Source of the DNA: Candidatus Saccharimonadota bacterium
GTDB taxonomy: Bacteria; Patescibacteriota; Saccharimonadia; Saccharimonadales; JACDBH01
Assembly (NCBI GenBank): GCA_013694995.1
Contig: JACDBH010000004.1
Coordinates: 128,995 to 192,994, forward strand
Direction of reading: 5' to 3'
DNA: 64,000 bases
The translations under genes and the position numbers were made by a program. Below are positions 17,337 through 60,390 of the stretch, piece after piece (the first letter of the stretch is position 1; each line of letters starts with the position of its first letter). The notes beneath the pieces were generated by a model. It was not told where the DNA came from and ran no database searches. It saw only the letters and a list, made by a program, of their open reading frames with translations.

Positions 17337-17377
17337 TATAAAGTATAGACCATTGCTACTTCATATAACTTGGGTAA

Positions 17378-17408
17378 TTTATATGGTGGGCGAAAGAGGA
17401 CTTGAACC
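17378..17408 (-). repeat. 31-bp perfect direct repeat of the tRNA-Leu(CAG) 3' end plus trailer
   Basis: TTTATATGGTGGGCGAAAGAGGACTTGAACC is identical at 17378-17408 and 17534-17564. No matching 5' acceptor strand is present, so this copy is a fragment. Confidence 0.85.
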
Positions 17409-17539
17409 CGAAGAAGCCCAGTGGGCTTCTGAGTTCACGCTAGTTAAGCGTCTGTTTAGCATAGTGTTCAAAAGCTGTATATATACATTCTATTGTTTAG
17501 CGCTAAGGTACAATGTCCTATTTGTTCAGCAAGTTTATA

Positions 17540-19681: not shown

Positions 19682-19783
19682 AAGCTTTAAGAAACTATAG
19701 CAGATAAATATGAGGCAGGCGAGACAGGACCTGTCTATGTTCCTAATTCCAATAAGTTACTACTGGTGCGCGAGAGAGGCTTG

Positions 19784-19870
19784 CTCACGTTCCGCGAGCC
19801 CAGAACTTTCATGCGTTGAACCAGTTCAACCCTGGAAGGTTCTCTTGCAAAATGCCACTGGCATTTCTCA
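19784..19870 (-). ncRNA. 87-nt conserved tRNA-fused element, copy A
   Basis: Shares sequence and compensatory hairpin changes with 22505-22591 (+) and 33747-33832 (-). Begins TGAG and ends GGAACGTGAG. No ORF. Confidence 0.5.
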
Positions 19871-19935
19871 CCTATCGGTTCAAGTTCTCCGGCACCAAAA
19901 CAACAAACCGACCTAAAGAGGCCGGATAGTTGTTT

Positions 19936-20019: not shown

Positions 20020-20298
20020 GTTTGTAAAGCCATAAAATTATAACATCGCAGGGGTATAATAAAAACATAAGAAGAGAGGGTGATGAGGGACTCGCCTCGC
20101 TGTCAAATCAAAATAGGGACTCGCATGTTGATATATAAATAAAACCTTGCAAGCAAGTATTATTTGCATCCCTGATAAATCAGGGTGCCATAGGAAAACA
20201 TGAACAGCCACTGTCTGTTCATACCCGCCGACCCTAGGCGTCGGCAGTACGAGTCCATACACCAAATTAAAAACCGGCCTTACAGCCGGTGCTTAATT

Positions 20299-21544: not shown

Positions 21545-21901
21545 ATGTCTAACATACATGTAAAGACAGCCGCAATTAATCTACGTAGGGCAGTAAATGA
21601 TCTTGAAACTGAGCGCAAACAACTTGAGGCAGATCTCTCTAAGCAGCTAAAAGACATAGATTCTAAGCGCAACAATTTGAGTTATTTAGAAAAACAGCGA
21701 ATTGGAAAAATAAGCCAGACAGATGACCAAGCCGCACAAACACAAAGTTTGGTTATGGCCGAGCGTATGCATAACGAATCCAAAGATCTCGAAAATCAAA
21801 TTGCCCAAATCAAAAATGAGGCAAGCCAACGAACTGCAAGTATAGACAGCCAGATTGCATCGTATAGCGGCCTGGCCAACCAACTAGAGATGCAGGCTTG
21901 A
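21545..21901 (+). CDS. coiled-coil protein, unknown function
   Basis: AAGGAG 7 nt upstream of ATG 21545, preferred over the TTG at 21512. Heptad-rich, Gln/Glu/Lys-rich. Confidence 0.5.
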   Translation: MSNIHVKTAAINLRRAVNDLETERKQLEADLSKQLKDIDSKRNNLSYLEKQRIGKISQTDDQAAQTQSLVMAERMHNESKDLENQIAQIKNEASQRTASIDSQIASYSGLANQLEMQA

Positions 21902-21970
21902 GGTAATAAAGCTTTTCGCGTAATATACAGGGGTCTCGCATCCACTTTTTTAAACCAAGAACTCGTTATG

Positions 21971-22070
21971 TTTGAAAAAGTGAAAGGAGATGACTTGGTG
22001 AAGTTACTAATGATACCGGTCAAACTTGTTTTGCCGGTGACATAGTAACTGCACCATTACACATCGACGC
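21971..22070 (+). promoter_or_regulatory. conserved pre-tRNA leader module, copy 1 (59-nt hairpin 21997-22055)
   Basis: Same architecture as 22388-22479, 40525-40618 and 60010-60101. Helices covary, loop TCAAACTTGTTTTG, and ATTACACATCGACGC abuts the tRNA. Confidence 0.7.
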
Positions 22071-22146
22071 GGCTCTTTAGCTCAGTTGGTAGAGCAGAGG
22101 CCTGAAGAGCCTTGTGTCCCCAGTTCGAGTCTGGGAGGAGCCACCA
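22071..22146 (+). tRNA. tRNA-Phe(GAA), CCA encoded
   Basis: Acceptor GGCTCTT/AGGAGCC, anticodon arm GAGGC-CTGAAGA-GCCTT, T arm CCCAG-TTCGAGT-CTGGG. Confidence 0.85.
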
Positions 22147-22185
22147 AATAAAAACCCCACCCTCCGTGGGGTTTTTATTTGGTGG
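22141..22185 (+). terminator. rho-independent terminator whose 20-bp stem includes the tRNA-Phe CCACCA end
   Basis: CCACCAAATAAAAACCCCAC-CCTCC-GTGGGGTTTTTATTTGGTGG is a perfect inverted repeat with a T-run. Confidence 0.75.
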
Positions 22186-22317
22186 TACTCACAACTAGAA
22201 TATGCCGAAGGCAGTTCGCTAATTGCACGATTAGTGCAATTATATGCAGAACCCTAGAAATCAATCCTTTGAAAAATAGATTTCTAGGAGTGAAGCTATA
22301 TTCTGGGAGGGTATAAC

Positions 22318-22346
22318 TTGTCTGTAATGTCATTTTTAGGTATAAT
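22318..22346 (+). promoter_or_regulatory. sigma70-like promoter TTGTCT-17-TATAAT
   Basis: TTGTCT at 22318-22323, 17-nt spacer, TATAAT at 22341-22346, upstream of leader copy 2. Confidence 0.55.
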
Positions 22347-22387
22347 CCTCCCTGTTCTTATACCAAATTTGCGAGAGAATTCGCGAA

Positions 22388-22479
22388 TTTGAGAGGAGAC
22401 GGCTTGGCGATATTGCCAGGATTGCCGAGCAAACTTGTTTTGGCGGTAATACGGCAAAAACGCCATCACACGTCGACGA
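22388..22479 (+). promoter_or_regulatory. conserved pre-tRNA leader module, copy 2 (59-nt hairpin 22406-22464)
   Basis: TTTGAGAGGAGA..GGCTT, a three-segment hairpin with loop AGCAAACTTGTTTTGG, then ATCACACGTCGACGA abutting tRNA-Gly nt 1. Confidence 0.7.
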
Positions 22480-22504
22480 GCGGGTGTAGCTCAGTTGTTT
22501 AGAG
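22480..22504 (+). pseudogene. 5' fragment (nt 1-25) of tRNA-Gly(GCC), truncated by element copy B
   Basis: GCGGGTGTAGCTCAGTTGTTTAGAG is identical to 22662-22686. A decayed anticodon arm follows at 22592-22613. Confidence 0.7.
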
Positions 22505-22591
22505 TGAGGCCCGCTTGTGGCGGGCCGCAAGGCAAACTTCTGATGAAAACTTGTTTTCAATCATGAAGTTGCGGGGTCGCGGGAACGTGAC
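22505..22591 (+). ncRNA. 87-nt conserved tRNA-fused element, copy B
   Basis: TGAG-GCCCGC/GCGGGC hairpin-CGCAAGG-CTTC...GAAG helix-GTTGCGGGGTCGCGGGAACGTGAC. Homologous to copies A and C. Confidence 0.5.
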
Positions 22592-22661
22592 CTTACTTGC
22601 CAGGCCAAGGAAGCTTTCGTAAGTAACATGATGTACCTTACAATACGAACGAACCAAACAT

Positions 22662-22738
22662 GCGGGTGTAGCTCAGTTGTTTAGAGCGCTTCCTTGCCAA
22701 GGAAGAGGTCGAGAGTTAGAGTCTCTTCACCCGCACCA
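22662..22738 (+). tRNA. tRNA-Gly(GCC), CCA encoded, unusual D loop/T loop
   Basis: Acceptor GCGGGTG/CACCCGC, anticodon arm CTTCC-TTGCCAA-GGAAG, D loop AGTTGTTTA (no GG), T arm GAGAG-TTAGAGT-CTCTT. Confidence 0.85.
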
Positions 22739-24272
22739 AATGGGACTTATCTGTAATGGATAGGTCTTTTTTATTGCCCGCCAATCTGATGAGCTCGCTT
22801 ATTTCGGGGGTGTAAACATTTTTGTTGGCATCCAGCCTAAAACCAGCAGGGAAAACGATTTGTTTAAACCTCAACCTGTTTTCATGTGGTGTCAGGGGGT
22901 CTAGGAACTTTTGGCTCGTGTCACCCACAAAGCCAAAGGCAAACTTTAAGAACCGTTCGTAGTCATCCTCGGCTTTACGAGTGAGCCTGTGCAGTTGGTC
23001 TTCAATGTCTTCAGCTTCCTGTTTTCGTTTAGCTATGTTTGTAAGTATGTCGGACTTAATAGCGGCATTCTCGGGGTCTGTGGCTGCTTCAACCTGTTGG
23101 CTAATACTCTCCTGTAGGCTGGCTAGCTTGTGTCGTAGACGTACAGCCTCTTGCTGGTTCTCGCTCTCACGGCGTTTCCAGACAATATCAAGTGCTTTTG
23201 TGAGGTCAGATACACCAGCATCGGTAATAGGGTTGTTCCTAAGCTGCTTAGTAATTTTATCGTGCATTTCGCCACGGGCTAAGGCGCGCTTACAGGCACG
23301 GCACCTGTACTTTTCGTATATCTTAGGGCTTTTCCCGTTCGTTATGTCCACGCCTACAATGCGGTTGTACTGTTTACCCTCACAAACATCACAGTGAATT
23401 ATGTTGTTGAGGGGGTACTTAGGATTGCCGTTTTTGCGGGGACCAGTTTGGTTTTTCTGCTTCCCTCCAAATATACGCAACAGTTCATGGTGCTGTTCAA
23501 GGGTGATAAGCGGTTCGTGCAGCCCGTTAAGGTTATGGACTTTAACTTGTTTATCAATTGCAACACCGCCAGCGTAATAGATGTCGGTGGCTATCTTACG
23601 AAACTTGTCCATTTTATACAGGGAATGTCCTCTCATGAACTCGCTACTGTTAAGGTTTATCAAGCCCTGGGTTGGCGTGACCCGCTTGGTGACTATATCA
23701 AGCAATACCTTCCTTAGAGCCTGCCCACGCACAGGGTGAGGCTTGTGGATGCCACGTTCATCACCTCGCATGTAGCCTGGCTTAGGGCAAAACGTGTAGC
23801 GACCCTCTTGCAGGGCTTTTGTTTGACCGTTAATTGACTTACGTTGCCGTTCCTCGTTGCTACCTTCAGCAGATAGGTACTTGGTAAACTTGAGTAGCTT
23901 GGCTGCAAGGTCACCTTTGTTTAGCTCAGCGTCTGAGGCGTACCAGACTGTTACCCCTAACTGGCGAAAAGTGACTTCAAAAAACGCAGCTTCATCAATT
24001 GACCGCATAAATCTATCTGGTTCGTCTACAATAATGTACTTAATGCGCTTATCTTTTTTGCAGCGTACTATCATTTGGTTTAGGTCTTTACGGTCTACGT
24101 TCGTACCCCGCTTGCTTGAGACGCTGCCAGACCACCAGCAGTCATCAGGTATCATTACGCCTAATTCATTAGCCGCTTTTAATACAACTTCTCTCTGACG
24201 ATTAAGACTGTTATTCTCCAGTTGCTCGGTACTAGAGACTCTGCACAGTGCTATGGCGAGATGCTTAGGCAT
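22716..24272 (-). CDS. large serine recombinase (integrase type)
   Basis: N-terminal resolvase catalytic block AIALCRVSSTEQ...SL.RQ, a recombinase domain, the Cys cluster CDVC..//..CRAC (zinc ribbon), and a C-terminal coiled coil. 518 aa. Confidence 0.9.
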   Translation of the reverse strand: MPKHLAIALCRVSSTEQLENNSLNRQREVVLKAANELGVMIPDDCWWSGSVSSKRGTNVDRKDLNQMIVRCKKDKRIKYIIVDEPDRFMRSIDEAAFFEVTFRQLGVTVWYASDAELNKGDLAAKLLKFTKYLSAEGSNEERQRKSINGQTKALQEGRYTFCPKPGYMRGDERGIHKPHPVRGQALRKVLLDIVTKRVTPTQGLINLNSSEFMRGHSLYKMDKFRKIATDIYYAGGVAIDKQVKVHNLNGLHEPLITLEQHHELLRIFGGKQKNQTGPRKNGNPKYPLNNIIHCDVCEGKQYNRIVGVDITNGKSPKIYEKYRCRACKRALARGEMHDKITKQLRNNPITDAGVSDLTKALDIVWKRRESENQQEAVRLRHKLASLQESISQQVEAATDPENAAIKSDILTNIAKRKQEAEDIEDQLHRLTRKAEDDYERFLKFAFGFVGDTSQKFLDPLTPHENRLRFKQIVFPAGFRLDANKNVYTPEISELIRLAGNKKDLSITDKSHLVRVKRL

Positions 24273-26649: not shown

Positions 26650-27210
26650 TTAGTCAGCTATTTTTTGGGCTTGGCTACCTTGTACTTCGCCAAGTTCGCC
26701 TGGAGTCCCTGGTGTATCTGCTTTGGGGTTTTGCCCTTCGTTGAAATGAGGGTGATTAGTCGTTTCATAAGTCTGATTATACTCTCCAGTGGTGTAATGG
26801 GGTCTGTAAGTTATCACCTCAGGCTCACTACCAACCGTGATAACTACAGTCTGCTGTTGCTGAGTAATATCTACTTGAGTGCGTAGCATACCGTAGTGTT
26901 TCATCATCAGCTCAATAGCTTTTAGCCTTGCCGAAGGACGCATGTCAGTATCCTCTATGAAGGTTTTGAGTGTTGCTAATATCCTCTCGGGTGTAAAGTG
27001 GCGCGCGTTAGTAGCCTCGTACTGTCTTAACCAGCCTGGCTTCGTTCTGGATAGCTCTCGTGCTGTGTGGTGACTAAAGCCACTGGTAATAGCAGATTGA
27101 TAGCAGTTGCCAAAGGACGGGCTTTTGGGATTAAAGTAGCAATCAATAAACCTCTGCTGCCTAGGATTATTTATTACTGACGATACGTTTAGCAATCGGT
27201 TCGTAGCCAT
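26650..27210 (-). CDS. phage terminase small subunit-like DNA-binding protein
   Basis: N-terminus PRQQRFIDCYF.....FGNCYQSAITSGFSHHTARE fits the Terminase_2 HTH pattern (Q..F..EY....NAT.AA..AGYS..TA). Confidence 0.5.
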   Translation of the reverse strand: MATNRLLNVSSVINNPRQQRFIDCYFNPKSPSFGNCYQSAITSGFSHHTARELSRTKPGWLRQYEATNARHFTPERILATLKTFIEDTDMRPSARLKAIELMMKHYGMLRTQVDITQQQQTVVITVGSEPEVITYRPHYTTGEYNQTYETTNHPHFNEGQNPKADTPGTPGELGEVQGSQAQKIAD

Positions 27211-27993: not shown

Positions 27994-28167
27994 TAACCAT
28001 CCTTTAATTTCATTTAACCACAGTTTCATATAAAAGTCAATAGCTTACGCTTTAAATTACATAAACACTAACATCACAGATACGTGCGTAGCTTTTACAT
28101 TTTATAATGATTGTGTTTTGTTGGCTACTGTGATATCAATATAACTAATAAGGGCGATGTTCAGCAT

Positions 28168-31100
28168 ATGTTTATGAGAAAAAAATCAAAAAAAGTTCAA
28201 ACGCAATTTAAAGAAGAACAAATCAATCCTGGCCTAATCTTGCCTACACCCATAAATCAAAGAAAGTCCCGGTTTAGACTTTATTCACCCTCAGGAAAGG
28301 GCTGGAAATCCAAAGCTTTAATTTTCATGTTAGCTTTTGGAGTTATTGGCGGCTTCTTCTTATATAGAAGCTTTGCCGAAACCCCTTATGGCGACATACT
28401 AACTGGAGCTGACCAATTGGTGTTACGGTACGAACTGCCCTACCCGCATAATTATATTGAGAACGAATTTGAACAAGTTCCGCCACCTGCCACACTTTTA
28501 TATGGAAATGGTCTAATGCTCTGCCACGAATATGAGAAGTCTCGTGCCGACACCCAAACAAGTCCGCTAATGTTTTTAAAGGAGCGTCAGCTTGCGTCGG
28601 GTGAAATTGCGATACTCGTTGATCAAATACGAGCTCTGGGCTTTGATGATATGTTTACCAGGACGCTACCTGATACTATTCCTCCGGCGGTAGACGAAAC
28701 ACCTAGCATTAGCCTGTTTACCACTAGCGGCGAAAGGGAAGTTGTTCTTTATCCTACTGAAAAGTTAGACAAATTTGATGCAATAGCTGCGCTCCTAAGC
28801 AGTGAGTGCAAAAAGGCAAAGACTGATTTTGATCCTGATGAAGTTATCTTGGAAAGTATCAAACTGCCGGATATGGCTGAAAGTACAGTGGCTACCTTGC
28901 CAAATTTGTCAGTATCAGTTGCTGAAAAGGACAACGATATCCAATCCAAAGTCCTTAGTGGCGATGAAGCTAAAAATATTAAAGGCCTAATAGCTAAAGG
29001 GAATAAAATATATAAAGCACCAGACGGCAAAAAAATTAAAGTAAGGGTAATACCGAAAGTACCCGATTACCAAATTTCGAAACGTTTCAGTAAATCTAGC
29101 GGTGGAAACGTGGCCAGTGCAGCTAATATATACAAAGTCCGTTTCGTATATATATATGCTGCTGATCAAGCTCCTCCAACCTCAGATCAACTTAGTGGCT
29201 TTGTTGAGTTGATGAACTCATTGCCGGGCTATTACAGTAACAATGTGAATAAGCCTTTTACATCCCAGGGGCTAACAGTGATGCAAGCAACCAAAAACGT
29301 GGCAGATTATCATGTATGTCCAGATAACAAATGCGTAGATACAAATACAGGTGAGTACATGGGCTCACTGGCTACATATAAAAACTTAGAACTAGATAGT
29401 AATATAAAAAAAGCTGGTATAAGTACGGTGGTAGCATATAACTGGAACTACGGGAGCGAAGTATGTAGGGGCTGGGGAGGCCCTACTCATCCTGAATCTG
29501 AATTTTTTAATTACGTTGGTGTCGAAAATTATGGTGTAGCAGCCTTTGCTGCCGCAAAGTGTATGGGATCTACTTCTCTATATCCTCCCCCGGGTAACCC
29601 AAGTCCAAATCTGAGACACAAGGTGGGCGCGCATGAAGTCGGCCATACTTTTGGGTTAGGTCATGACACAGAACTAACAATGATGCATAGGGGCGGTGTC
29701 ACTATGACTACTTTTGGTTATGGTATTCCACTGAATCCCGTCCAGGCTACCCTACTTCGTGATTTAAGCCTATTCTTTCGTGAAGAAGCTGGGGCGGTGT
29801 ATGAACCTGGACCAGTTACATCAGGTTCAACCTTTGTCTCCATAAACCCAGCACGCCTACTTGAAACACGTCCAAACCTTTCAACTGTCGATGGGAATTT
29901 TAATGGCATAAACAGCCTAGTAGCCGGCTCAACTACAAAATTACAGGTTGGTGGCCGGGCCGGAATGGCCACCAATGCTAGAGCAGCTGCGCTCAATGTT
30001 ACAGCCATTAACCCAATAGCAGCGGGTTATATGGTAGTTTTTCCATGTGATACTGGGCAACCAAAAACTTCAAACGTTAATTATAATCCTGGCATTACAG
30101 TTTCAAATTTTGTTATTTCAAGGTTAGACGGTAACGGACAGGTCTGCATATATACTAATAATGCCATAGATTTGGTAGTAGATATAAATGGGGTGTTTCC
30201 ATCTGGTTCTACTACATCATATACCAACATAAGCCCTGTCCGCATACTAGAAACGCGGGGAGGCCTATTAACTGAAGATGGGCAGTTTAATGGCATTAAC
30301 CGTTTGCCGGCAGGTTCAGTTACCCAGTTAACGGTTAATGGCCGTGTCGGTATACCCTCTAATGCTTCTGCTGTATCCTTAAATGCTACAGTTATAGATC
30401 CAGCTGCCGATGGGTTTATGGTTATTTACCCTTGCAATACCTCTCCGCCTTCTACTTCAAGTATTAACTATATGAAAAGTAGTAATATATCGAATGCTGT
30501 TATATCAAAAGTAGGCAATGGCAGTGTCTGTATCTATACCAATAACGCAATTGATCTGGTAGTTGATATTAATGGTGCGTTTAATGACTACACGTCATTT
30601 AAAAGTGTTCCGCCTAAGCGCTTACTGGAAACTAGGCCTGGGCTTATTACCTATGATGGTATTTCGCAAGGTATTAACAGGCTTGGAGCTGGCTCAATAA
30701 CCGAATTCCAGGTTGCCGGAAGGGCTGAAGTACCCAATGATGCCCTAGCAACGGCATTGAATGTTACAGTTATTAATGCCCAGTACGACGGTTTCATGAC
30801 AGTATATCCTTGTGGTATCCCTTTACCGAAGACTTCCAATGTCAACTTTAACGCCAATACCACCGTTTCTATAGCTGCATTTTCGAAAATAGGGGTAGGT
30901 AGCAGTGCTGGCAAAGTCTGCCTTTATACAAATGTTGCTACGGACGCTGTAGTTGATGTAAATGGCGCGTTTGTGATTTCAGATGGGTCGCAATCCGCTC
31001 TAACCGCGGTTGATCCTGTCGGGGTTTCTCCCGCCCCACCTACTACCGTAGTAGCCTGCCCGTCAGGCTACATAGGCACTTATCCAAACTGTGTCATACC

Positions 31101-33708
31101 AGTTCCTCCAGACACCATTGCAAGAAAGATGTTTACCTGGGTTAGTAACAGTGCAACTGCTCCAAACATTCCGGATTATCCTTACTGTGCTCGCATGGAT
31201 GCTTCTGCCACGGACCCGCATACTTGGGCTGACAACTGGCTATGCAGCCACTTCGATTATGGCTTAAGGCTTTATTTAGCTACTGCACCACTTAATCATG
31301 CCTCCCTGTATCCAACCAGTTCGATTTTCATGGCTGAGCCGGCGCATAAAGATGCAGGATGGGGCGATTCCTCAATGGGGACTACAAGGACTGCTTACTT
31401 CCTGCAATCCGACAGAAATACCCCAAGCGATTTTGTATCAAAATTTACCTGGAGCTATGTAGGTTCTACTGAGATAGCGGCAGGCTTACCTGACGCGCGC
31501 TCCTGTACTGCATGGAGTGAACCATCCGAACCAGCCAGCTCGATGTGGAGCGATAACTACCTATGTGGGCCTTGGTGGTTCCAAACTATACCCCCAACGC
31601 CACCAGTAGTCTCGATAACGGCGCCAGCTAGTAATTCTACCGTGAGCAACATTGTCACCATCAGTGCCAATGCAACTGATGCTAAAGGGATCTCAGTCGT
31701 CCAGTTCAAGTTGGATGGCAATAACCTCGGCGTCGAAGATGCGACGGCACCTTATTCGATAAACTGGGACAGTAAAACGGTGAACAGTGGCAACCATACC
31801 CTCACGGCGGTAGCGCGTAATGTCAGCGGACTTAGCACAACTTCAGCACCCGTTACAGTGAATGTCCAATTACCCCCACCACCACAAAGCACAGCACAGG
31901 GCACAATAACTAGTGCAGACTGCGCAATCATAAGGGGAACTGCCTACGATGCAGACTGGCCAGCAGGTGGAATACGAATTGATATACGAATCGATTCTTC
32001 TTACGCGTCCAATCCCCGTCCACCAGATGGAACCGTTTACACCGACTCAGCCGGTAATTGGTCTTGGTCAATCCCTAATACATCGGCTTATAAAACCAGT
32101 CGAGCTCGTTCTATATATTTTGACATATTGGGCAAAAACTCCTCAGGTGTTGGTGATGCTTGGGTAGTTGGCATTAACTCAGGTAGTCCAACTTACGGCC
32201 CTTGCCAAGTTGCAATGTGTAGTTCTATTCAAGTCAGCATGGATAATGGGGTTACATACGGAAGTAACATTGGTTATAACGGTAGCGCCAATGTCACTGG
32301 TGGTAAGGCATTCAAAGTGAAAATGGCGATGAATAACCTAGCTCCTGTGGTTGGCGGTTCTACATGGAATACAGGATCTGCCAGTCAACAGGTACATGTC
32401 GGAACAGACGGAACAGATACTAGGAATGACTTTAAGGCAATAACTGGTTTAGATTATAGGACATCCGAAAATTCACCGGCTACCGTATACCCTGGCCAAG
32501 TAGGGTACTTCGTATGGGGAATTACTGCTCCGAATGCCAACACAACGCAGTATAAAAACTACACTATGCGTTTCCAGGCTGTGCAGGAATGGGTTGAATG
32601 GTTTAATACGGCTGGTTCTTCGAATACAGGAAACTGCCAGTTTAATATAAACGTCACAGCTCCGATTATAAGCAAATGCTCGGGCGTAACAATTTATAGT
32701 GACTCAAACTTCATAGGCGGTAGTTCAATTTTAAGTGCAGGATACAGTACAACGCGGATTCCTCTTGGTAGTGATACTATCAGCTCAGCACGCATACCAA
32801 AGGGATGTAAATTACGGCTGTTCCTGAATAATGTATATAGCGGAGCAATGCATGATTTAACAAGTGATTGGCCAGGCAGTGTATCTGACCCATGGAATGA
32901 CAAAGCCTCAGCACTGCAAGTCACAGAATCAGATACGATTACGGCAACAACGCCAATAACATGTCCCTCAAATAGCGTGACGCTATTCAAAGATTCCGGT
33001 TACTTAGGGTCATCGAAAATATTAAGTAATGGTAAGTATGATGTGAGGCAGCTTTCAGGTATTGGGGATAATAGGCTAAGCTCAGTTAAAGTACCTCTTG
33101 GCTGTAAGGTTATCCTATATCAAAATAGCGGTTTTGGCGGTGCAACCAAAGTACTAAACGGCGACTGGACAAGCACTGCTGATGATCCATGGAACGATAT
33201 TACTTCTAGTATTGAAGTCAAAAACCGTGCTACGGCTGTGGCTTCGACTGAGATGTTACAGAACCCTGGGTTTGAGCAGGGCAATGTAGTTTGGACAACA
33301 TCTGTTCCGAGTGGTGTAGTGTTCAACTACAATGTGTTATCTACAGCCGGACAAGCAAAAGAAGGAACTAAGTATATGGAAGCTAACTCTACACCATATG
33401 GAGCATCGCTATATCAGGTCGTCACAGCAAATCAAGAGCCAGGTTCTACATATAGATGGTCGGCTTGGGTAAGGTCGCCATCTTGTACTCCCGTAAATGG
33501 ACATGTTACTCTTTGGAGTGTGTGGGCAACAGTCACTAATTCCTACACCGGCTTCACAGCTGATTGTACTTGGCGCCAAATAACGACCACCTTCACTGCA
33601 ACTAATACCGGGGACACACAGTTCCTGCCATATATAACGTTACTTACGGGAGGCGTAAATCTGGATATTGATTCAGCTAGCTTGGTTAAAATTAATTACG
33701 TAGAGTAA
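28168..33708 (+). CDS. giant membrane-anchored surface protein: metzincin-motif protease region, 3x ~115-aa repeats, Ig-like, beta/gamma-crystallin-like x2, CBM-like C-terminus
   Basis: Start MFMRKKSKK matches the paralog. TM segment ALIFMLAFGVIGGFFLY. HEVGHTFGLGHD at 29632-29667 followed by MMH. Repeats run LETRP...LNVT...YPC...TSN.N...D.VVD.NGAF. C-terminal NPGFEQG..W block. Confidence 0.75.
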   Translation: MFMRKKSKKVQTQFKEEQINPGLILPTPINQRKSRFRLYSPSGKGWKSKALIFMLAFGVIGGFFLYRSFAETPYGDILTGADQLVLRYELPYPHNYIENEFEQVPPPATLLYGNGLMLCHEYEKSRADTQTSPLMFLKERQLASGEIAILVDQIRALGFDDMFTRTLPDTIPPAVDETPSISLFTTSGEREVVLYPTEKLDKFDAIAALLSSECKKAKTDFDPDEVILESIKLPDMAESTVATLPNLSVSVAEKDNDIQSKVLSGDEAKNIKGLIAKGNKIYKAPDGKKIKVRVIPKVPDYQISKRFSKSSGGNVASAANIYKVRFVYIYAADQAPPTSDQLSGFVELMNSLPGYYSNNVNKPFTSQGLTVMQATKNVADYHVCPDNKCVDTNTGEYMGSLATYKNLELDSNIKKAGISTVVAYNWNYGSEVCRGWGGPTHPESEFFNYVGVENYGVAAFAAAKCMGSTSLYPPPGNPSPNLRHKVGAHEVGHTFGLGHDTELTMMHRGGVTMTTFGYGIPLNPVQATLLRDLSLFFREEAGAVYEPGPVTSGSTFVSINPARLLETRPNLSTVDGNFNGINSLVAGSTTKLQVGGRAGMATNARAAALNVTAINPIAAGYMVVFPCDTGQPKTSNVNYNPGITVSNFVISRLDGNGQVCIYTNNAIDLVVDINGVFPSGSTTSYTNISPVRILETRGGLLTEDGQFNGINRLPAGSVTQLTVNGRVGIPSNASAVSLNATVIDPAADGFMVIYPCNTSPPSTSSINYMKSSNISNAVISKVGNGSVCIYTNNAIDLVVDINGAFNDYTSFKSVPPKRLLETRPGLITYDGISQGINRLGAGSITEFQVAGRAEVPNDALATALNVTVINAQYDGFMTVYPCGIPLPKTSNVNFNANTTVSIAAFSKIGVGSSAGKVCLYTNVATDAVVDVNGAFVISDGSQSALTAVDPVGVSPAPPTTVVACPSGYIGTYPNCVIPVPPDTIARKMFTWVSNSATAPNIPDYPYCARMDASATDPHTWADNWLCSHFDYGLRLYLATAPLNHASLYPTSSIFMAEPAHKDAGWGDSSMGTTRTAYFLQSDRNTPSDFVSKFTWSYVGSTEIAAGLPDARSCTAWSEPSEPASSMWSDNYLCGPWWFQTIPPTPPVVSITAPASNSTVSNIVTISANATDAKGISVVQFKLDGNNLGVEDATAPYSINWDSKTVNSGNHTLTAVARNVSGLSTTSAPVTVNVQLPPPPQSTAQGTITSADCAIIRGTAYDADWPAGGIRIDIRIDSSYASNPRPPDGTVYTDSAGNWSWSIPNTSAYKTSRARSIYFDILGKNSSGVGDAWVVGINSGSPTYGPCQVAMCSSIQVSMDNGVTYGSNIGYNGSANVTGGKAFKVKMAMNNLAPVVGGSTWNTGSASQQVHVGTDGTDTRNDFKAITGLDYRTSENSPATVYPGQVGYFVWGITAPNANTTQYKNYTMRFQAVQEWVEWFNTAGSSNTGNCQFNINVTAPIISKCSGVTIYSDSNFIGGSSILSAGYSTTRIPLGSDTISSARIPKGCKLRLFLNNVYSGAMHDLTSDWPGSVSDPWNDKASALQVTESDTITATTPITCPSNSVTLFKDSGYLGSSKILSNGKYDVRQLSGIGDNRLSSVKVPLGCKVILYQNSGFGGATKVLNGDWTSTADDPWNDITSSIEVKNRATAVASTEMLQNPGFEQGNVVWTTSVPSGVVFNYNVLSTAGQAKEGTKYMEANSTPYGASLYQVVTANQEPGSTYRWSAWVRSPSCTPVNGHVTLWSVWATVTNSYTGFTADCTWRQITTTFTATNTGDTQFLPYITLLTGGVNLDIDSASLVKINYVE

Positions 33709-33724
33709 GACAAGTTTTAATATA

Positions 33725-33886
33725 TGGTGCGGGTTGAAGAGACTCTCCCACGTTCCGCGGGCCCGAAACTTCATCTTTACAGGCTAGTTTGTAAGAGAAG
33801 ATTTCCTTGCGAATTGCCACCGGCAATTCTCACTCTCGACCTCGTCCTTGGCAAGGATGCGCTCTAAACAACTGAGCTAAACCCGC
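33725..33886 (-). tRNA. tRNA-Gly(GCC)-like gene interrupted in the T loop by the 86-nt element (intron-like, or a pseudogene)
   Basis: The 54 nt at 33886-33833 match tRNA-Gly through the T-stem 5' strand. The 22 nt at 33746-33725 are AGAGTCTCTTCAACCCGCACCA. TATAAT at 33908-33903. Confidence 0.5.
33747..33832 (-). ncRNA. 86-nt conserved tRNA-fused element, copy C
   Basis: TGAG-AATTGCC/GGCAATT hairpin-CGCAAGG-CTTC...GAAG-GTTTCGGGCCCGCGGAACGTGGG. Homologous to copies A and B. Confidence 0.5.
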
Positions 33887-34667: not shown

Positions 34668-37600
34668 ATGTTCATGAGGAAAAGATCGAAGAAAACTAAA
34701 ATGCCAGTAGATATGATGCAAACAGACGCACCTATAGAAGCGCCAAAAAGTGGACGCCGCCAGAAACATTTAAGCTTATATCCGGTATCAGGGAAAGGCT
34801 GGAAGCAAAAAGCAATCATATTTATGGTCGCTTTTGGAGTTATTGGCGGCTTCTTTATATATAAGAATTACGCATTAAACCAGTATGGTGATATCCCAAC
34901 TGGTGCAGATGAGCTTGTCTTAAACTATGAGCTGCCCGAAGTTTATGAGGTTTTAGAAAATGACTTTAATCAGGGTTCTGCGCCAGCCATGATGTTATAT
35001 GGCAATGGACTTATGCTTTGCGGCAACGAAACATCGGGAAAAAATCCCCAAATTAGCCCGCTTATGTCTATTAAACAGCGTCAGCTATCGCCTCTGGAAG
35101 TCACGACTTTATTTGAAAAAGTACGAGCATTGGGATTTGATAGTTTGCTTACGCGTACTTTGCCGGATTCGCCAGCGCCGCCTTTTGGTGTTACGCCTAG
35201 TCTTAGCTTGTTTACCAGCGAAGGTGAGCGGCGGTTAGTCCTAGCATTTAATGAAAAACCGGCTCAGTTTACTGCTATTACTAATTATTTGGACGATGAA
35301 TGTAAGAAAGCTAAAGAAGAATTCTATCCAGACGATGTAGTACTTGAGAGCATAAAAATTACCGAATCGGCCGAGGCTGGTTTGGAGGCACTTCCTGACA
35401 TACCTGTGCCAAATAGAGACGGTCTTGGTTCTACCAGGCTGCTGGGTGATGAGGCTATAAGGGTTAAAAGCTTAATTTCTAAAGGAAACAAGTTATATAA
35501 AACGTCAGATGGTAAAAAGATCAAAGTACGTCTATTACCAACAATTCCCGAGTACAAGATACCAAAGCTAGCTACTGCTGCCAACAGTAGCAGTAATGTT
35601 GCACACGCGGATAATTTCCGAAAAGTGCGTTTCCTGTATGTAGTTGCAGCCGATGAAGCTGTACCATCTAATGCCCAAACACAGATTAGCGAATTGGCTT
35701 CATCACTGCCGGGATATTACGAAACACAAGTTGGCAAGACATTTACAGTAGAAGGGGCGAGCGTTGTCAAGGGAAGTAAAACTGCTGCACAATACCGTGC
35801 GTGCCCCTATGCAGGTGTTGATTATGCTAAGTGTTTGGTCGATGGTATATTTGAAGATTCACTTGCCTCATATCTACACTTGCAACAAGAATTTAGAGCA
35901 GACAACTTCAGTACGATTATGATGTTAAGCTGGACAACGAGTAGATGTTTAGGAATGGGTGGCCCAACTGATCCTTTGAAAGTGGATAATGCAAATCTTG
36001 ATACGTATGGCATGGGTAGTTTCTCGGCACCTTCATGTCCTTGGGCAGGAACCAAAGAATTGCTCGGTGCTCACGAAGGTGGCCACAGTTTTGGCCTAGA
36101 ACATACCCAGGACCAAACAATTATGTCGAATGCTTACACTCCACCCAAAGGTTATGTATGGCCGCTTAAATCAAGCCAGGCTGCACTGCTAAGTAACTCC
36201 AGTCCATGGTTTAATGGTCCCACTGCGGCTGCTCCCGCTCCTGCAGCAGTCTCATCAGGCTCCACATTTATCTCCATAACTCCTGCCCGCATCCTAGAAA
36301 CACGTCCAAATCTAAGCACTGCTGATAATCAGTACAATAATACTGGCCGTCTCAAGGGAGGTATAGTTAGAGAATTACCAGTAGCTGGGCGTGTTGGTAT
36401 ACCGATCAACGCTCTAGCGGCAGCATTAAATGTTACCGTAGTTAACCCTTCAGGTGATGGCTTCGTAACGGTCTTTCCGTGTGGCACTGGCACACCAGGG
36501 ACATCAAATGTTAATTTCCGCACAGGAAACGTAATTTCTAATATGGTTATATCAAAACTAGGCGGTGGCCAGGTCTGTTTATATAGCAACGTTGATACCG
36601 ATCTGGTGGTTGACGTCAACGGAGCCTTCCCATCTGTTTCTACCGCATTTTATACTAATGTTACCCCATCACGCCTACTTGAGACGCGGCCAGGTAATTC
36701 TACTACCGATGGGCAGTTTAATAACATAGGACGTAGAGCTGGAGGAACAGTCACTGCTGTGCAGGTTAGCGGTCGTTTCGGTATCCCTTCCAATGCTTCC
36801 GCAGTATCTCTAAACGTTACGGTCATTGAGCCTTCAGCAACCGGCTACATGGTTGTATATCCGTGCGGTATACCACCTCCAACTACTTCAAGTGTTAACT
36901 ATACAGGTGGAGGAATTATCTCAAATGCAGTTATTTCGAAACTAGGCAGTGGCCAAGTCTGTATCTATACCAATAACGACACCGATCTAGTGATTGACGT
37001 TAATGGTGCCTTTAATGACGTAACATCGTTTAAGAGTGTCCCGCCAGTCCGCCTACTTGATACCCGCCCTGGTTATAGTACGGTTGACGGTGTTAGTGCA
37101 GGTATAGGGGCACGCACAGGGGGTTCAACTTATGAGCTCACAGTTGCAGGCAGGGGAGGAGTGCCTGCCGATGCAGTGTCGGTTGCGCTCAACGTTACAG
37201 TGATTAACCCTGTGGGAGATGGTTTCTTGACTGTATTCCCATGTGGCATAGGTTTGCCAAATACTTCAAATGTTAACTATAAAGCAGGCACTATTCTCTC
37301 CAATGCCGTGCTGTCTAAACTAGGCAGTAAAAAAGTCTGCATCTATACCAACAATAGTACCGATATAGTTGTAGACGTTAGTGGCGCTTTCACACTTCTG
37401 GATACGCAGCAAAGTGCAACGGCCGTAACCCCGTCGGTTACCTCGCCAACTTTAATCTCTTCCTGCCCAACCGGCTACACCGGAACCTATCCGAACTGTG
37501 TTCTTTCACGATGCCCAACCGGCTACACCGGCACCTACCCGAACTGTGTGCCTCCACCATGCCCAACCGGCTACACCGGCACCTACCCGAACTGTGTGCC

Positions 37601-39056
37601 TCCGGCCTGCCCAACCGGCTACACCGGAACCTATCCGAACTGTGTGCCTCCGGCTACCTTAGCCCCATCCATATGCAGAGGTTTGACTGTCTACAGTGAT
37701 GCTAATTACTTGGGTGCCTCCCAGTCTCTCACTTATACCCAGTACGACTACCCGTTAGCAATAGGCAACGATGCCATCAGCTCAGCCCGTGTTCCAGCTG
37801 GCTGTAAGCTAACCCTTTACCAGAACGGTGCCTACGGCGGAGCTACCCAGGAGCTAACAAGCAATTGGGCTGGCAGCGCTGGCGACCCATGGAATGACAA
37901 GACTTCCAGTGTCAAAGTCGCCACCAATGGTATAGTGTCTACTACTCCGCTAACCTGTAGTAGTGTCGGTATAAGACTATACACCGAAGCTGGTTATACT
38001 GGTACTTCGCAAGCATTCTTTAAAGGCAATTATGACTACGCTCAGCTTGGTACCGTAGGCAATGACAAAGTAAGCTCAGTATATGTTTCGGCTGGCTGTA
38101 AGGTCATCCTTTACCAGCACGGTGCCTTCAGTGGTGCCACTAAAGAACTAACAAGTGGCTGGTATGGGAGTACTACCGACCCATGGAACGACATCACATC
38201 TGGTATTAAGGTAGTTGACCGTGCCACGACCAATTACGGCTCGAATAATGCCTACCGCATGCTAGGTCTTAGATGGAGTTATACTGGCTACATACCTGGC
38301 GGCTACTGTGTCGAAGTCGTTGAACCAAGCGACCCAGTCTGGATGACTTACCGTGATAACTTCCTCTGTAGGACATCAGGTGATTTAAAATGGAGTTACG
38401 CTGGCCCAATTGCCGGTATGTACTGTACGTTAGTCAATGAACCTGCTGAACCGTTAAATTACTACTGGTACGATAACTATATCTGTACAAATAACTCCCA
38501 AGGCACCAGGTTCAGCTCAGCTGGCCCAATTGCCGGTATGGCTTGCACCCTCATGAACGAACCGGGAGACCCTCATTCCTGGAATGATAACTATATCTGC
38601 GAACCGGCACGGGTAACGGCTTCTAGCGTTTATACCCCATATGGCTATTATGTCGCTGCTAATGCGACTGACGATGGGGGGGTAACTAACGAATGGGCCT
38701 CCTATGGCCAAGGAGCTGGCGCATGGGTGCAGATTGGCTGGCCGGGCGTAGTTAACGTCAGTAAAGTAAGCATCAGAGATCGGGTCAACCCACTCGATAA
38801 CATCCAGAGCTTTACACTTACCTTTAGCGACGGTTCAGCCGTGGCTTACGGCATACCGCTACCGAACGACGGGGCTCCACTAGAAATTCAATTCCCAGGC
38901 AAAAACATTATCTGGATGCGTATGACTGTAAACACTTCAATTGGTCCGAATATTGGTGTCGCTGACATTAAGACTTTCCCTTATATTGGATATACAGAGA
39001 CTACAACAAGTACAACAACTACAACAACTACGACACCGCCGCCTACTGCAAATTAA
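34668..39056 (+). CDS. giant membrane-anchored surface protein, paralog of 28168-33708, with discoidin-like C-terminal domain and poly-Thr tail
   Basis: MFMRKRSKK start. TM segment AIIFMVAFGVIGGFFIY. HEGGHSFGLEH at 36072-36104. 3x LETRP...NGAF repeats, 4x CPTGYTGTYPNCV, 2x crystallin-like domains, 3x W/C modules. Confidence 0.75.
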   Translation: MFMRKRSKKTKMPVDMMQTDAPIEAPKSGRRQKHLSLYPVSGKGWKQKAIIFMVAFGVIGGFFIYKNYALNQYGDIPTGADELVLNYELPEVYEVLENDFNQGSAPAMMLYGNGLMLCGNETSGKNPQISPLMSIKQRQLSPLEVTTLFEKVRALGFDSLLTRTLPDSPAPPFGVTPSLSLFTSEGERRLVLAFNEKPAQFTAITNYLDDECKKAKEEFYPDDVVLESIKITESAEAGLEALPDIPVPNRDGLGSTRLLGDEAIRVKSLISKGNKLYKTSDGKKIKVRLLPTIPEYKIPKLATAANSSSNVAHADNFRKVRFLYVVAADEAVPSNAQTQISELASSLPGYYETQVGKTFTVEGASVVKGSKTAAQYRACPYAGVDYAKCLVDGIFEDSLASYLHLQQEFRADNFSTIMMLSWTTSRCLGMGGPTDPLKVDNANLDTYGMGSFSAPSCPWAGTKELLGAHEGGHSFGLEHTQDQTIMSNAYTPPKGYVWPLKSSQAALLSNSSPWFNGPTAAAPAPAAVSSGSTFISITPARILETRPNLSTADNQYNNTGRLKGGIVRELPVAGRVGIPINALAAALNVTVVNPSGDGFVTVFPCGTGTPGTSNVNFRTGNVISNMVISKLGGGQVCLYSNVDTDLVVDVNGAFPSVSTAFYTNVTPSRLLETRPGNSTTDGQFNNIGRRAGGTVTAVQVSGRFGIPSNASAVSLNVTVIEPSATGYMVVYPCGIPPPTTSSVNYTGGGIISNAVISKLGSGQVCIYTNNDTDLVIDVNGAFNDVTSFKSVPPVRLLDTRPGYSTVDGVSAGIGARTGGSTYELTVAGRGGVPADAVSVALNVTVINPVGDGFLTVFPCGIGLPNTSNVNYKAGTILSNAVLSKLGSKKVCIYTNNSTDIVVDVSGAFTLLDTQQSATAVTPSVTSPTLISSCPTGYTGTYPNCVLSRCPTGYTGTYPNCVPPPCPTGYTGTYPNCVPPACPTGYTGTYPNCVPPATLAPSICRGLTVYSDANYLGASQSLTYTQYDYPLAIGNDAISSARVPAGCKLTLYQNGAYGGATQELTSNWAGSAGDPWNDKTSSVKVATNGIVSTTPLTCSSVGIRLYTEAGYTGTSQAFFKGNYDYAQLGTVGNDKVSSVYVSAGCKVILYQHGAFSGATKELTSGWYGSTTDPWNDITSGIKVVDRATTNYGSNNAYRMLGLRWSYTGYIPGGYCVEVVEPSDPVWMTYRDNFLCRTSGDLKWSYAGPIAGMYCTLVNEPAEPLNYYWYDNYICTNNSQGTRFSSAGPIAGMACTLMNEPGDPHSWNDNYICEPARVTASSVYTPYGYYVAANATDDGGVTNEWASYGQGAGAWVQIGWPGVVNVSKVSIRDRVNPLDNIQSFTLTFSDGSAVAYGIPLPNDGAPLEIQFPGKNIIWMRMTVNTSIGPNIGVADIKTFPYIGYTETTTSTTTTTTTTPPPTAN
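37464..37655 (+). repeat. 4 x 48-bp in-frame tandem repeat encoding CPTGYTGTYPNCV(L/P)(S/P)(R/P/A)
   Basis: TGCCCAACCGGCTACACCGG(A/C)ACCTA(T/C)CCGAACTGTGT... repeated head-to-tail four times. Units 1 and 4 share synonymous variants, as do units 2 and 3. Confidence 0.9.
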
Positions 39057-40469: not shown

Positions 40470-40524
40470 AACTGGGTCCTCGGCTAATTATGCAAACCAG
40501 GCAACTTGTTTGCTGTTTAGCGTA

Positions 40525-40618
40525 TTTAAGAAGAGAGGGCTTGGTGAGGTTGCAAATAATGCCACACAAACTTGTTTTGATGGCAGTATGGCAACATCAC
40601 CATTACACCTTAACGACA
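40525..40618 (+). promoter_or_regulatory. conserved pre-tRNA leader module, copy 3 (59-nt hairpin 40543-40601)
   Basis: TTTAAGAAGAGAGGGCTT, hairpin GGTG..TTGC..TGCCA-loop CACAAACTTGTTTTGA-TGGCA..GCAA..CACC, then ATTACACCTTAACGACA. Confidence 0.7.
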
Positions 40619-40685
40619 GGGCGCCTTGGCCGAGAAGTTAGGCAGCGGTCTGCAAAACCGCGTAGACGGGAGCGTTACCCGTAGG
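40619..40685 (+). pseudogene. orphan 5' two-thirds of a type II tRNA with anticodon loop CTGCAAA (GCA); no T arm or 3' acceptor strand
   Basis: GGGCGCC-TT-GGCCGAGAAGTTAGGC-A-GCGGT-CTGCAAA-ACCGC plus a long variable arm ACGGG/CCCGT. Downstream sequence cannot form a T arm or pair with GGGCGCC. Confidence 0.55.
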
Positions 40686-40788
40686 TGCCTCCAGCTTGAA
40701 TTTGTACCTCGTTTTTATGTAAAGTGCTTTATAGCACTTTACTTTCAAACTCGGACAATTTCTACGTTTTCCATTACACGTCGACGAA

Positions 40789-40875: not shown

Positions 40876-40878
40876 TAT

Positions 40879-40908
40879 AAAAAAGCCTGAAGTTTACAGG
40901 CTTTTTTA
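40879..40908 (+). terminator. rho-independent terminator after tRNA-Leu(TAA)
   Basis: AAAAAAGCCTG-AAGTTTA-CAGGCTTTTTT. Confidence 0.75.
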
Positions 40909-40949
40909 TACTTTAATTGACATTATAAAAAAAAGAGTATAATAAATTT

Positions 40950-47489: not shown

Positions 47490-47587
47490 TTAATTACAAG
47501 GGGTGATTGTAGCAGAATAAGCAGCTAAGATAAAGAGTTGTTACTCTGAATAAGATACGGCTTCCTGATGATATACTGGACTGAAGC

Positions 47588-59867: not shown

Positions 59868-60009
59868 ATACTCATTCTAACTGCTATAGTTATCATAAAA
59901 AAACGAAATACCTAACATTCGTACATTAATAAACCTGTTAAAATATGCCCCCATCTGTTAAAATTGTCCCGAAAGTCATTATTTACAAATTCGCGAGAGG
60001 AATCGCAAA

Positions 60010-60101
60010 TTTGAGTGGGGAAGGCTTGCTGAGGTTGCTACTTTTGCCGAGTAAATTTATTTTGTCGGCAAATATGTAACCGCAGCATCACACTTCGACG
60101 A
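60010..60101 (+). promoter_or_regulatory. conserved pre-tRNA leader module, copy 4 (59-nt hairpin 60028-60086)
   Basis: TTTGAGTGGGGAAGGCTT, hairpin GCTG..GTTGC..TTGCCGA-loop GTAAATTTATTTTG-TCGGCAA..GTAAC..CAGC, then ATCACACTTCGACGA. Confidence 0.7.
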
Positions 60102-60175
60102 TGGGGATTGGCCAAGTGGTAAGGCAGTGGATTCTGGTTCCACGATCGGGGGTTCGAATCCCTCATCCCCAGCCA
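60102..60175 (+). tRNA. tRNA-Gln(CTG), CCA encoded
   Basis: U1:A72 acceptor TGGGGAT/ATCCCCA, anticodon arm GTGGA-TTCTGGT-TCCAC, T arm GGGGG-TTCGAAT-CCCTC, discriminator G. Confidence 0.85.
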
Positions 60176-60184
60176 AATAAAAAT

Positions 60185-60207
60185 GACCTCAGTCGAGGTT
60201 TTTTTAT
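60185..60207 (+). terminator. rho-independent terminator after tRNA-Gln
   Basis: GACCTC-AGTC-GAGGTT followed by TTTTTTT. Confidence 0.7.
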
Positions 60208-60390
60208 TTGTTCGTGACAGAGTTTGTGCGTACGAGAATGTCCAGTGGGACATTCCCCGACCCGTAGCCCTAAACCAATTGGATTTGAGGTGGCTTTCGA
60301 ACTTAATTTTAATTTGCTTGTCAGGCTAATCTTTCTATAAAATAGAATACACAAAATGACATCTAATAAGCTGAAACTTTTTACTATAGG

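Follow-up and report, generated by a model that had tools for sequence, protein, structure and literature searches.

Leader copies and their neighbours in the window

The window analysed here, a 64-kb stretch (64,000 nucleotides) of contig JACDBH010000004.1 from a Candidatus Saccharimonadota bacterium, contains nine transfer RNAs (tRNAs) and one LOOT RNA recognized by ARAGORN and Rfam, together with four plus-strand copies of a leader element that lie directly upstream of tRNA genes or, in one case, of a tRNA fragment. The element is best read as a Saccharibacteria-specific structured RNA of about 125 nucleotides (nt) in the 5' flank of RNase P substrates, its apparent taxon range being that recovered with two specific search patterns. 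It comprises an upstream hairpin of 11 base pairs (P0), an AGA linker and an irregular rod of ~83 nt (P1 to P5) that ends shortly before position +1 of the tRNA. A sequence-only reading of the window had placed the four copies correctly, and a repeat finder groups all four into one family; the 59-nt hairpins with three covarying segments and a conserved apex are likewise as that reading described them. However, the module of ~90 nt that it proposed was too short, as the outer helix P1 and the upstream covarying hairpin P0 have to be added.

Copy 1 (21943–22070, plus strand) consists of a variant B P0 (21943–21982), the rod (21986–22068) and a 2-nt linker that adjoins +1 of tRNA-Phe(GAA) (22071–22146, plus strand; ARAGORN and Rfam), after which a terminator-like hairpin lies at 22159–22172. 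Copy 2 (22364–22479, plus strand) has a variant A P0 (22364–22391, with the loop GAGAAT), the rod (22395–22477) and the linker GA, and is preceded by a promoter-like site, TTGTCT-17-TATAAT and then CCTCCCTGTT (22318–22346, plus strand), that matches the consensus at 10 of 12 positions, as a pattern match only. A strict promoter consensus scan gave clear support for copy 2 only and weak support for copy 4. Whereas the location first given for copy 2 is correct, its claimed abutment to the tRNA-Gly gene is not: it adjoins instead a 25-nt 5' fragment of tRNA-Gly(GCC) (22480–22504, plus strand) that is identical to nt 1–25 of the intact gene. This upstream tRNA-Gly copy is broken by a structured insert of ~89 nt, the GUGAG insert (22504–22593, plus strand; 97 bits with covariance model R2, and marked by covariation), and an anticodon-arm remnant and a TACAAT box lie between the insert and position 22661. 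The intact tRNA-Gly(GCC) (22662–22738, plus strand; ARAGORN and Rfam), with a terminator-like hairpin at 22742–22768, begins 182 nt past copy 2. A terminator scan of the plus strand from 22380 to 22661 returned no terminator-like site, and transcription from the putative copy-2 promoter probably reads through into the intact gene as well.

Copy 3 (40486–40619, plus strand) contains a variant B P0 at about 40486–40527, the rod (40532–40614) and a 5-nt linker, GACAG; its P1 (CCTTAAC) is the most divergent of the four. The RNA behind it, previously taken for a "GCA-loop fragment", is a complete tRNA-Cys(GCA) according to both ARAGORN and Rfam (40620–40693, plus strand), and is the first gene of a Cys-Leu(TAA) unit closed by a terminator-like hairpin at 40876–40910. 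Before the second gene, tRNA-Leu(TAA) at 40789, only the last ~18 nt of the element are kept (16 nt in the earlier account), as the remnant CCATTACACGTCGACGAA (40771–40788, plus strand), which holds the 3' strands of P2 and P1 and the linker and adjoins the tRNA; in genome L065 a full element stands between tRNA-Cys and tRNA-Leu(TAA). Copy 4 (59986–60101, plus strand), with a variant A P0 (59986–60013), the rod (60017–60099), the linker GA and the UUUA variant of the apex, is followed by tRNA-Gln(CTG) (60102–60175, plus strand; ARAGORN and Rfam) and a terminator-like hairpin at 60185–60200.

A covariance model built from the four window copies (R1) scores them at 106–111 bits (109 for copy 1 over 21971–22070, 111 for copy 2, 106 for copy 3 and 108.5 for copy 4). 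With filters off it finds exactly four copies in the 64 kb, the next plus-strand match reaching 13 bits and nothing else in the window exceeding 26 bits. The copies span about 116–134 nt from P0 through the −1 position and can be aligned over ~150 nt, with identities of 65–72% in which the loops are common and the stems differ. Every one folds as the same long hairpin; compared with shuffled controls, the fold has z values of −3.7 to −5.2 in three of the four copies (−5.2 for copy 1) and only −2.4 in copy 2, which precedes the tRNA-Gly fragment. In the window the loop word AAAYTTRTTTT is present five times against an expectation of 0.57, and CAYYACACNTCGACG five times against 0.70.

A covarying RNA structure upstream of RNase P substrates

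The outer helix P1 is formed by four to five Watson-Crick pairs. In the RNAalifold consensus the variable "n" of ACACnTCGACGA and the variable base of GAGAnGG form a pair that is U-A, C-G, G-C and A-U in the four window copies; P1 is also predicted to contain tandem G.A/A.G pairs (GGAG opposite CGAC) flanked by G-C pairs. The helix ends 2 nt (usually GA) before the tRNA +1, which places leader positions −3 to −9 in the paired region. An asymmetric and invariant internal loop, GCU opposite UYACA, lies inside P1 and is followed by helices P2 to P4, which are variable in sequence and covary, and by P5 (AAA/UUU), which is invariant and carries a four-base apex, C-UU-G or U-UU-A; P2 to P5 make up the 59-nt hairpin. 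Conservation is strongest in the GGAG/GAC of P1, the internal loop, the apex and the final five bases. P0 occurs in two variants, A with a GAGGAU loop and B with a CUUG-type inner hairpin. Neither a multi-helix junction nor a pseudoknot was detected in the rod, which has a single conserved internal loop.

Further copies were collected with two patterns. A scan of a genome collection for the apex plus CAYYACAC gave 76 loci with 63 elements confirmed by R1, and a metagenome scan for GAGAGGAG..GGCTTG plus CAYYACAC, in which the apex and P1 were left free, gave 48 loci with 47 elements; both patterns are quite specific, and divergent relatives may lie outside their reach. The element is spread across the phylum Saccharibacteria (TM7), with 110 further copies in public genomes and metagenomes, nearly all of which abut a tRNA +1. 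The records in the genome set are mostly titled Candidatus Saccharibacteria, Saccharimonadales or Saccharimonas; a few are titled otherwise, and some of these are probably mis-binned, because at least one such locus (L008) is nearly identical to a Saccharimonas locus (L016). The possibility raised in the sequence-only reading, that the module is confined to four loci and reflects recent duplication, does not hold in view of these copies and the compensatory divergence of their stems. A scan of IMG/VR with a loosened version of the metagenome pattern returned no copy of the element.

Covariation far exceeds that of shuffled and slid controls in both sets, bearing out the earlier proposal of a selected RNA structure in tRNA 5' leaders. 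In the genome set 94.3% of cells are paired and both partners have changed in 20 of 25 pairs; this set reaches a covariation score of 0.443, versus 0.146 for shuffled alignments and at most 0.094 for slid partners. The metagenome set, which was collected independently with the apex unconstrained, gives 95.0% of cells paired, 18 of 25 pairs compensatory and a score of 0.476. Both alignments were fitted to the model, which biases them towards pairing; the structure is nonetheless secure, since the effect is large, many pair types occur at a given position and two sets ascertained in different ways agree. P0 variant A behaves in the same way, with 96% of cells paired over 40 distinct hairpins, several pair types at five positions and up to 4–5 standard types per position. 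Even where unconstrained, in the metagenome scan, the apex stays AAA-[C/U]-U[U/A/C]-[G/A]-UUUU, and its closing pair covaries (C-G in 67 copies, U-A in 29). Within the stems G-U pairs outnumber A-C mismatches by 89 to 23, an excess that points to a structure read as RNA on the tRNA-sense strand.

The sequences downstream of the element were compared in a census of 104 distinct element-junction sequences. A tRNA starts within 8 nt in 79 of these units (65 abut exactly), covering 29 anticodon species; 14 units abut a 5' tRNA fragment or an interrupted tRNA and have an intact counterpart of that tRNA 40–270 nt further on, and seven reach a contig end. Of the other four units, one precedes a transfer-messenger RNA (tmRNA), one a tRNA-Met interrupted by a group I intron, and one a Lys-type fragment close to the end of a contig; the last is an orphan (L023:234) and is degenerate. 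The orientation relative to the tRNA is constant, the element always being upstream of the RNase P substrate and never downstream. It is found promoter-proximally (a −10-like box and a CTGT motif lie 31–100 nt upstream of 41 of 102 related copies, by pattern match only), behind another tRNA that ends 28–53 nt upstream (seven cases), and in a 16S-23S ribosomal RNA (rRNA) spacer, directly before tRNA-Ala, at a locus where the spacer tRNAs are co-oriented with the rRNAs (L114). The sole constant across these promoter-proximal, inter-tRNA and rRNA-spacer sites is the RNase P substrate downstream.

The same tRNA species, such as Lys, initiator Met and Gln, carry the element across many genomes, and other carriers vary by genome: Gly(TCC), Thr(GGT), Ala(GGC) and Arg(GCG) occur both with and without it. 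The element is missing from 53 of the 102 tRNAs in the same loci. Most of these element-free tRNAs stand behind another tRNA or have a −10-like box only about 8–20 nt from +1, which implies leaders of a few nucleotides.

Several features of these loci were noted alongside. In the window (47490–47515 and 20020–20045, both minus strand) and in many related loci, the −10-like box of element-free tRNAs is often followed by CCCCTGTT-like bases, and many leader elements have the same C-rich CCCCTGTT-like stretch behind the −10 box that lies upstream of them. Terminator hairpins after window tRNAs (22147–22190 and 60176–60215) and in related loci extend to pair with the tRNA 3' end (CCAAAUAAAA...UUUUAUUUGG), so that the CCA end of the primary transcript would be base-paired. 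The tRNA-Met mentioned above, with a group I intron in the anticodon loop (63 bits in Rfam), follows a leader element at L055:4120–4743 (minus strand); a recent study catalogues introns of this kind in Patescibacteria (PMC13011429). At L119:1–5955, 16S and 23S genes lie on the minus strand with two tRNAs between them on the opposite strand, a leader element between the two tRNAs, and a tRNA-Ile as the later one; because the intervening tRNAs are on the opposite strand, these rRNA genes are probably not one operon.

The element is a member of none of the families tested. At gathering thresholds, the Rfam 15 scan of the window returned tRNAs and LOOT only; the earlier statement that no motif of this kind has been described was upheld, as none of the 4227 models matched the element even permissively (at E ≤ 10 over 21900–22800 its matches were at chance level, ≤20 bits versus thresholds of 45–80), and full-text literature searches yielded no description of it or of the GUGAG insert. 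In the part of the Patescibacteria tRNA gene study covered by a term search, the word "leader" is absent and the passages returned concern introns, both those of group I and those of group II (PMC13011429). We rate the element as a categorically new RNA class, for which the functions considered below are put forward conditionally.

Candidate functions of the leader element

We favor, at a probability of roughly 45%, a cis-acting module for RNase P substrates that serves in processing or binds a protein, the two best candidates among the functions offered in the sequence-only reading. The element would act in cis on the tRNA precursor: a protein, or the RNase P holoenzyme, would recognize the surface formed by the conserved internal loop and the apex, and the P1 helix would determine how and when RNase P cuts at +1, through timing, protection or recruitment. 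It may also insulate the nascent tRNA from upstream sequence, and the RNase P cut would then set it free as a separate hairpin RNA. One Saccharibacteria genome has a canonical RnpA annotated within the usual rpmH-rnpA-yidC cluster (PMC12642639), so RNase P is the expected enzyme at +1; the idea of a leader that replaces a missing RNase P was rejected on the same ground. A role tied to the tRNA is favored by the fixed 2-nt distance from P1 to +1, by the +1-proximal nature of the remnant before tRNA-Leu(TAA), by the degeneracy of the single orphan copy and by the lower scores of modules beside broken tRNAs (5 of 14 below 70 bits versus 7 of 87; one-sided Mann-Whitney p = 0.047). The combination of shared loops with differing stems within one genome is, moreover, the pattern of multi-copy cis elements.

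Several points weigh against this reading. Transcription, RNase P cleavage at +1, the binding of a factor and an effect on processing are all features that we infer. About half of the tRNAs have no element, so it is dispensable for RNase P cleavage as such, and the carrier tRNA differs between genomes, so any role would be modulatory. The lower scores beside broken tRNAs are a weak signal (p about 0.05): all 14 such units are still recognizable, nine of them at 72 bits or more, and a pure cis role would require the truncations to be recent events. In addition, from the structures of bacterial RNase P, a leader paired from −3 to −9 is expected to hinder contact between RnpA and the leader.

A broader form of the proposal would have a dedicated signal on about half of the RNase P substrates, covering tRNAs of ~30 species, rRNA-spacer tRNAs and tmRNA, gate 5' maturation, through a lineage-specific factor or RNase P docking, and then persist as abundant trans-acting hairpin RNAs derived from the leader; we offer this form as tentative. 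A cis module and a released trans-acting RNA are not mutually exclusive.

As the main alternative, the element could be a small RNA encoded in many copies, for which the downstream tRNA or tmRNA is only the 3'-end signal and which RNase P releases to act in trans, for example by binding or titrating a protein. Loop and internal-loop bases that are nearly invariant while the stems drift would suit such an RNA, as would copies that remain recognizable, and sometimes high-scoring, beside truncated tRNAs; its mechanism demands the observed position upstream, and never downstream, of an RNase P substrate, the P0 hairpin could shield its 5' end, and a released product would fit with the ~125 nt that every copy takes up in a genome of ~1 Mb. 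The geometry speaks otherwise, with P1 fixed 2 nt from +1 in 65 of the 79 units, which is tighter than 3'-end formation needs, and with the +1-proximal part being what is left before tRNA-Leu(TAA). Trans-acting RNAs are also usually single-copy with conserved stems, whereas copies from the same genome differ here at 30–35% of positions, and the modules beside broken tRNAs tend towards degeneracy. We hold a trans-acting RNA to be less likely than a cis module.

A riboswitch or factor-controlled attenuator that tunes a subset of tRNAs, for instance to alarmone or nucleoside triphosphate levels, would be expected to appear as a conserved, structured, multi-copy leader ahead of stable-RNA genes, and many copies do have a promoter-like site and the C-rich CCCCTGTT-like stretch upstream. 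However, a run of at least five T in the 35 nt before the tRNA occurs in 0 of 105 leaders, and in the window copies the stretch from element to tRNA contains no terminator-like site; with neither a terminator nor a downstream open reading frame, the expression platform that should follow an aptamer is absent. The element also occurs within operons and an rRNA spacer, remote from any promoter; its shape is that of a rod with a single conserved internal loop, in which neither a multi-helix junction nor a pseudoknot was detected, and no Rfam riboswitch family matches it. This class of explanation, which includes the transcription attenuator suggested in the sequence-only reading, is now unlikely.

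A self-cleaving ribozyme that makes the tRNA 5' end without RNase P would account for the fixed distance to the mature 5' end and for a conserved internal loop seven stacked pairs from the junction. It is very unlikely, as no known small ribozyme family matches at E ≤ 10, the rod has none of the junctions or pseudoknots of these ribozymes, RnpA is present in the phylum, and half of the tRNAs are element-free yet have short leaders that need trimming.

Selection at the DNA level (a mobile repeat, an integration relic or a protein-binding palindrome), or recent duplication, is suggested by the fact that tRNA genes here are hot spots of insertion and partial duplication, by a large serine recombinase gene adjoining tRNA-Gly and by the variation of the carrier tRNA between genomes. 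We consider it highly improbable: the orientation to the tRNA is constant, G-U exceeds A-C, compensatory changes affect 18–20 of 25 pairs while the loop sequence is fixed, no terminal repeats or target duplications were seen, and the same tRNA species carry the element in many genomes. With a window identity of 65–72% and no IMG/VR copy, a repeat of the miniature inverted-repeat transposable or repetitive extragenic palindromic type was rejected together with recent duplication; a phage origin was rejected because the IMG/VR scans were negative for both the element and the GUGAG insert.

The weakest candidate, a translated and conserved short leader peptide starting at a TTG 5–6 nt past the AGGAG-like stretch, can be practically dismissed: a ribosome-binding-site-like GAGAGGAG is followed after 5–6 nt by TTG, the TTG being present in 91 of 98 copies, and the four window copies can be read with a common P-x-K-[LF]-[VI]-L, but 52 of 98 distinct copies stop within six codons and reading frames range from 1 to over 60 codons (which also disposes of a leader-peptide attenuator and of the conserved peptide that had been named as an alternative), GGAG is paired in P1 and the TG of TTG in P2, and the "coding" changes are those that compensate for pairing.

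Some more specific likenesses were tried and rejected. A K-turn at the tandem G.A does not fit, since the 3-nt bulge is four pairs away. A CsrA-type dual GGA site, with the GAGGAU of the P0 loop lying 18 nt from the linker GAGAGGAG, is attractive for variant A, but the loop of variant B has no GGA. The 5' strand of P2 (UGGUG), as a T-box-like partner of the tRNA 3' NCCA, was set aside because these positions covary freely.

In how it would work, the element most resembles the leader or spacer of stable-RNA operons, and in its geometry it resembles RNAs whose 3' ends are made by RNase P. Like the rRNA operon leader or 5' external transcribed spacer (ETS), with its boxB-boxA-boxC and leader-trailer helix, it would be a conserved structured sequence ahead of a stable RNA that is removed in maturation, and it occurs inside an rRNA operon too, in the 16S-23S spacer. 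In contrast to that leader, it has many copies in each genome, adjoins an RNase P site instead of an RNase III stem, and lacks a consistent boxA: only 8 of 105 leaders contain a TGCTCTTTAACAA-like sequence within three mismatches, at positions scattered from −55 to +40, and several of these weak matches fall in the paired 3' strand of P0 variant B. A nut-like antitermination leader was rejected because no boxA occupies a fixed place. Pairing of the 5' flank with a 3' trailer, as in rRNA stems, was rejected as none was obvious by eye; the terminator hairpins pair with the tRNA's own CCA end rather than with the leader.

T-boxes are similar in being multi-copy, rod-like, tRNA-related cis leaders in which an invariant core is combined with covarying stems specific to each copy. 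They differ in that they precede aminoacyl-tRNA synthetase or amino-acid genes, contain a specifier loop and a terminator/antiterminator, and bind tRNA in trans, whereas the new element precedes the tRNA or tmRNA itself, has no terminator (nor the T runs sought above) and matches no Rfam T-box model; a T-box leader was rejected on these grounds. RNase P cleavage of a downstream tRNA or tRNA-like structure is what makes the 3' end in MALAT1-mascRNA, in gammaherpesvirus tRNA-microRNA units and in plant tRNA-small nucleolar RNA units. There, too, a structured RNA lies directly upstream of an RNase P substrate and one cut makes both ends, but those units are eukaryotic or viral and confined to a single locus or family, whereas the element is found on ~30 bacterial tRNA species and tmRNA. 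Bacteria also make small RNAs and sponges from tRNA precursors, such as the 3' ETS of leuZ in Escherichia coli. These are likewise by-products of tRNA operon processing that may themselves be functional; they are locus-specific fragments of single spacers that act by base-pairing, not a structured family repeated across a phylum.

Bacterial pre-tRNA leaders are generally regarded as short, unconserved and simply removed by RNase P. In Saccharibacteria, a phylum whose genomes measure ~1 Mb, each of the many copies in a genome commits ~125 nt to a conserved fold joined to the expected RNase P cleavage site of tRNAs and tmRNA, and we know of almost no regulatory RNAs in this lineage. If the control of processing is as proposed, it would constitute a regulatory step in the tRNA supply of candidate phyla radiation bacteria and provide a tool for studying RNase P substrate recognition; if the released leader is functional, it would form a new class of abundant small RNA. 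Should gating and trans action both apply, this would be the first functional conserved structured pre-tRNA leader in any bacterium and a new regulatory layer on the tRNA pool in minimal genomes. The question is now testable, as a covariance model exists and the structure is defined to the base pair; natural competence and genetic manipulation are reported for Saccharibacteria (PMC10187176).

The GUGAG insert and other features of the window

The insert that breaks the upstream tRNA-Gly copy belongs to a second structured family of ~89 nt, with an invariant G|UGAG start and three hairpins. In 681 kb of Saccharibacteria DNA, model R2 detects 31 copies, of which three lie in the window (22504–22593 on the plus strand, 33745–33833 and 19782–19871 on the minus strand) and 28 in related loci (for example L022:4474–4562, L019:2295–2383, and L086:2249–2337 and 2540–2629). 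Its structure is likewise marked by covariation, with 93% of cells paired, 30 of 33 pairs compensatory and a score of 0.62 versus 0.19 shuffled. Most copies, including all three in the window, are flanked on both sides by pieces of one tRNA, with insertion points in the D arm, the anticodon loop or the T loop, and a complete tRNA of that kind is usually found about 40–90 nt away. The insert has no Rfam 15 match, and a pattern scan of IMG/VR found none; it could be an intron or a target-duplicating miniature mobile element.

The minus-strand copy at 33745–33833 sits in the T loop of a second, apparently complete tRNA-Gly(GCC) (33725–33886, minus strand) with its own TATAAT box, which ARAGORN does not call because of the insert; compared with the gene at 22662, its acceptor stem shows a compensatory change from G7-C66 to U7-A66. 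The other minus-strand copy lies just downstream of tRNA-Leu(GAG) and its terminator, in a segment (19764–19915, minus strand) composed of an inverted T arm, the GUGAG insert and the tRNA-Leu sequence from the 3' half of the T loop through CCA, and this layout recurs after Lys, Arg, Gln, Val and Met tRNAs elsewhere. A 38-nt duplicate of a tRNA-Leu 3' end, without GUGAG, is present ~125 nt past tRNA-Leu(CAG) (17376–17413) and looks like an attachment-site relic. At four related loci (L070, L002, L021 and L124) the leader element is followed by the 5' 16 nt of tRNA-Lys, an insert with that tRNA's own D arm inverted, and an intact tRNA-Lys.

The recombinase gene adjoining tRNA-Gly (22716–24272, minus strand) encodes a 518-amino-acid protein with a resolvase (serine recombinase) N-terminal domain and ends inside the tRNA-Gly 3' end. 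The ~11 kb beyond it, to about 34000, are bounded by the inverted, interrupted tRNA-Gly copy and hold the LOOT RNA and a weak small-terminase match (26650–27210); this stretch may be an integrated or invertible element. The LOOT RNA (Rfam RF03000; 24695–24813, plus strand; 75 bits), a structured orphan RNA, is separated from the recombinase gene by ~400 nt. Two giant paralogous open reading frames (28111–33708 and 34668–39056, both plus strand; 1865 and 1462 amino acids) have common internal repeats, a bacterial immunoglobulin domain, and weak, mostly sub-threshold matches to M12-peptidase-like and beta/gamma-crystallin domains, and their products are probably surface proteins.

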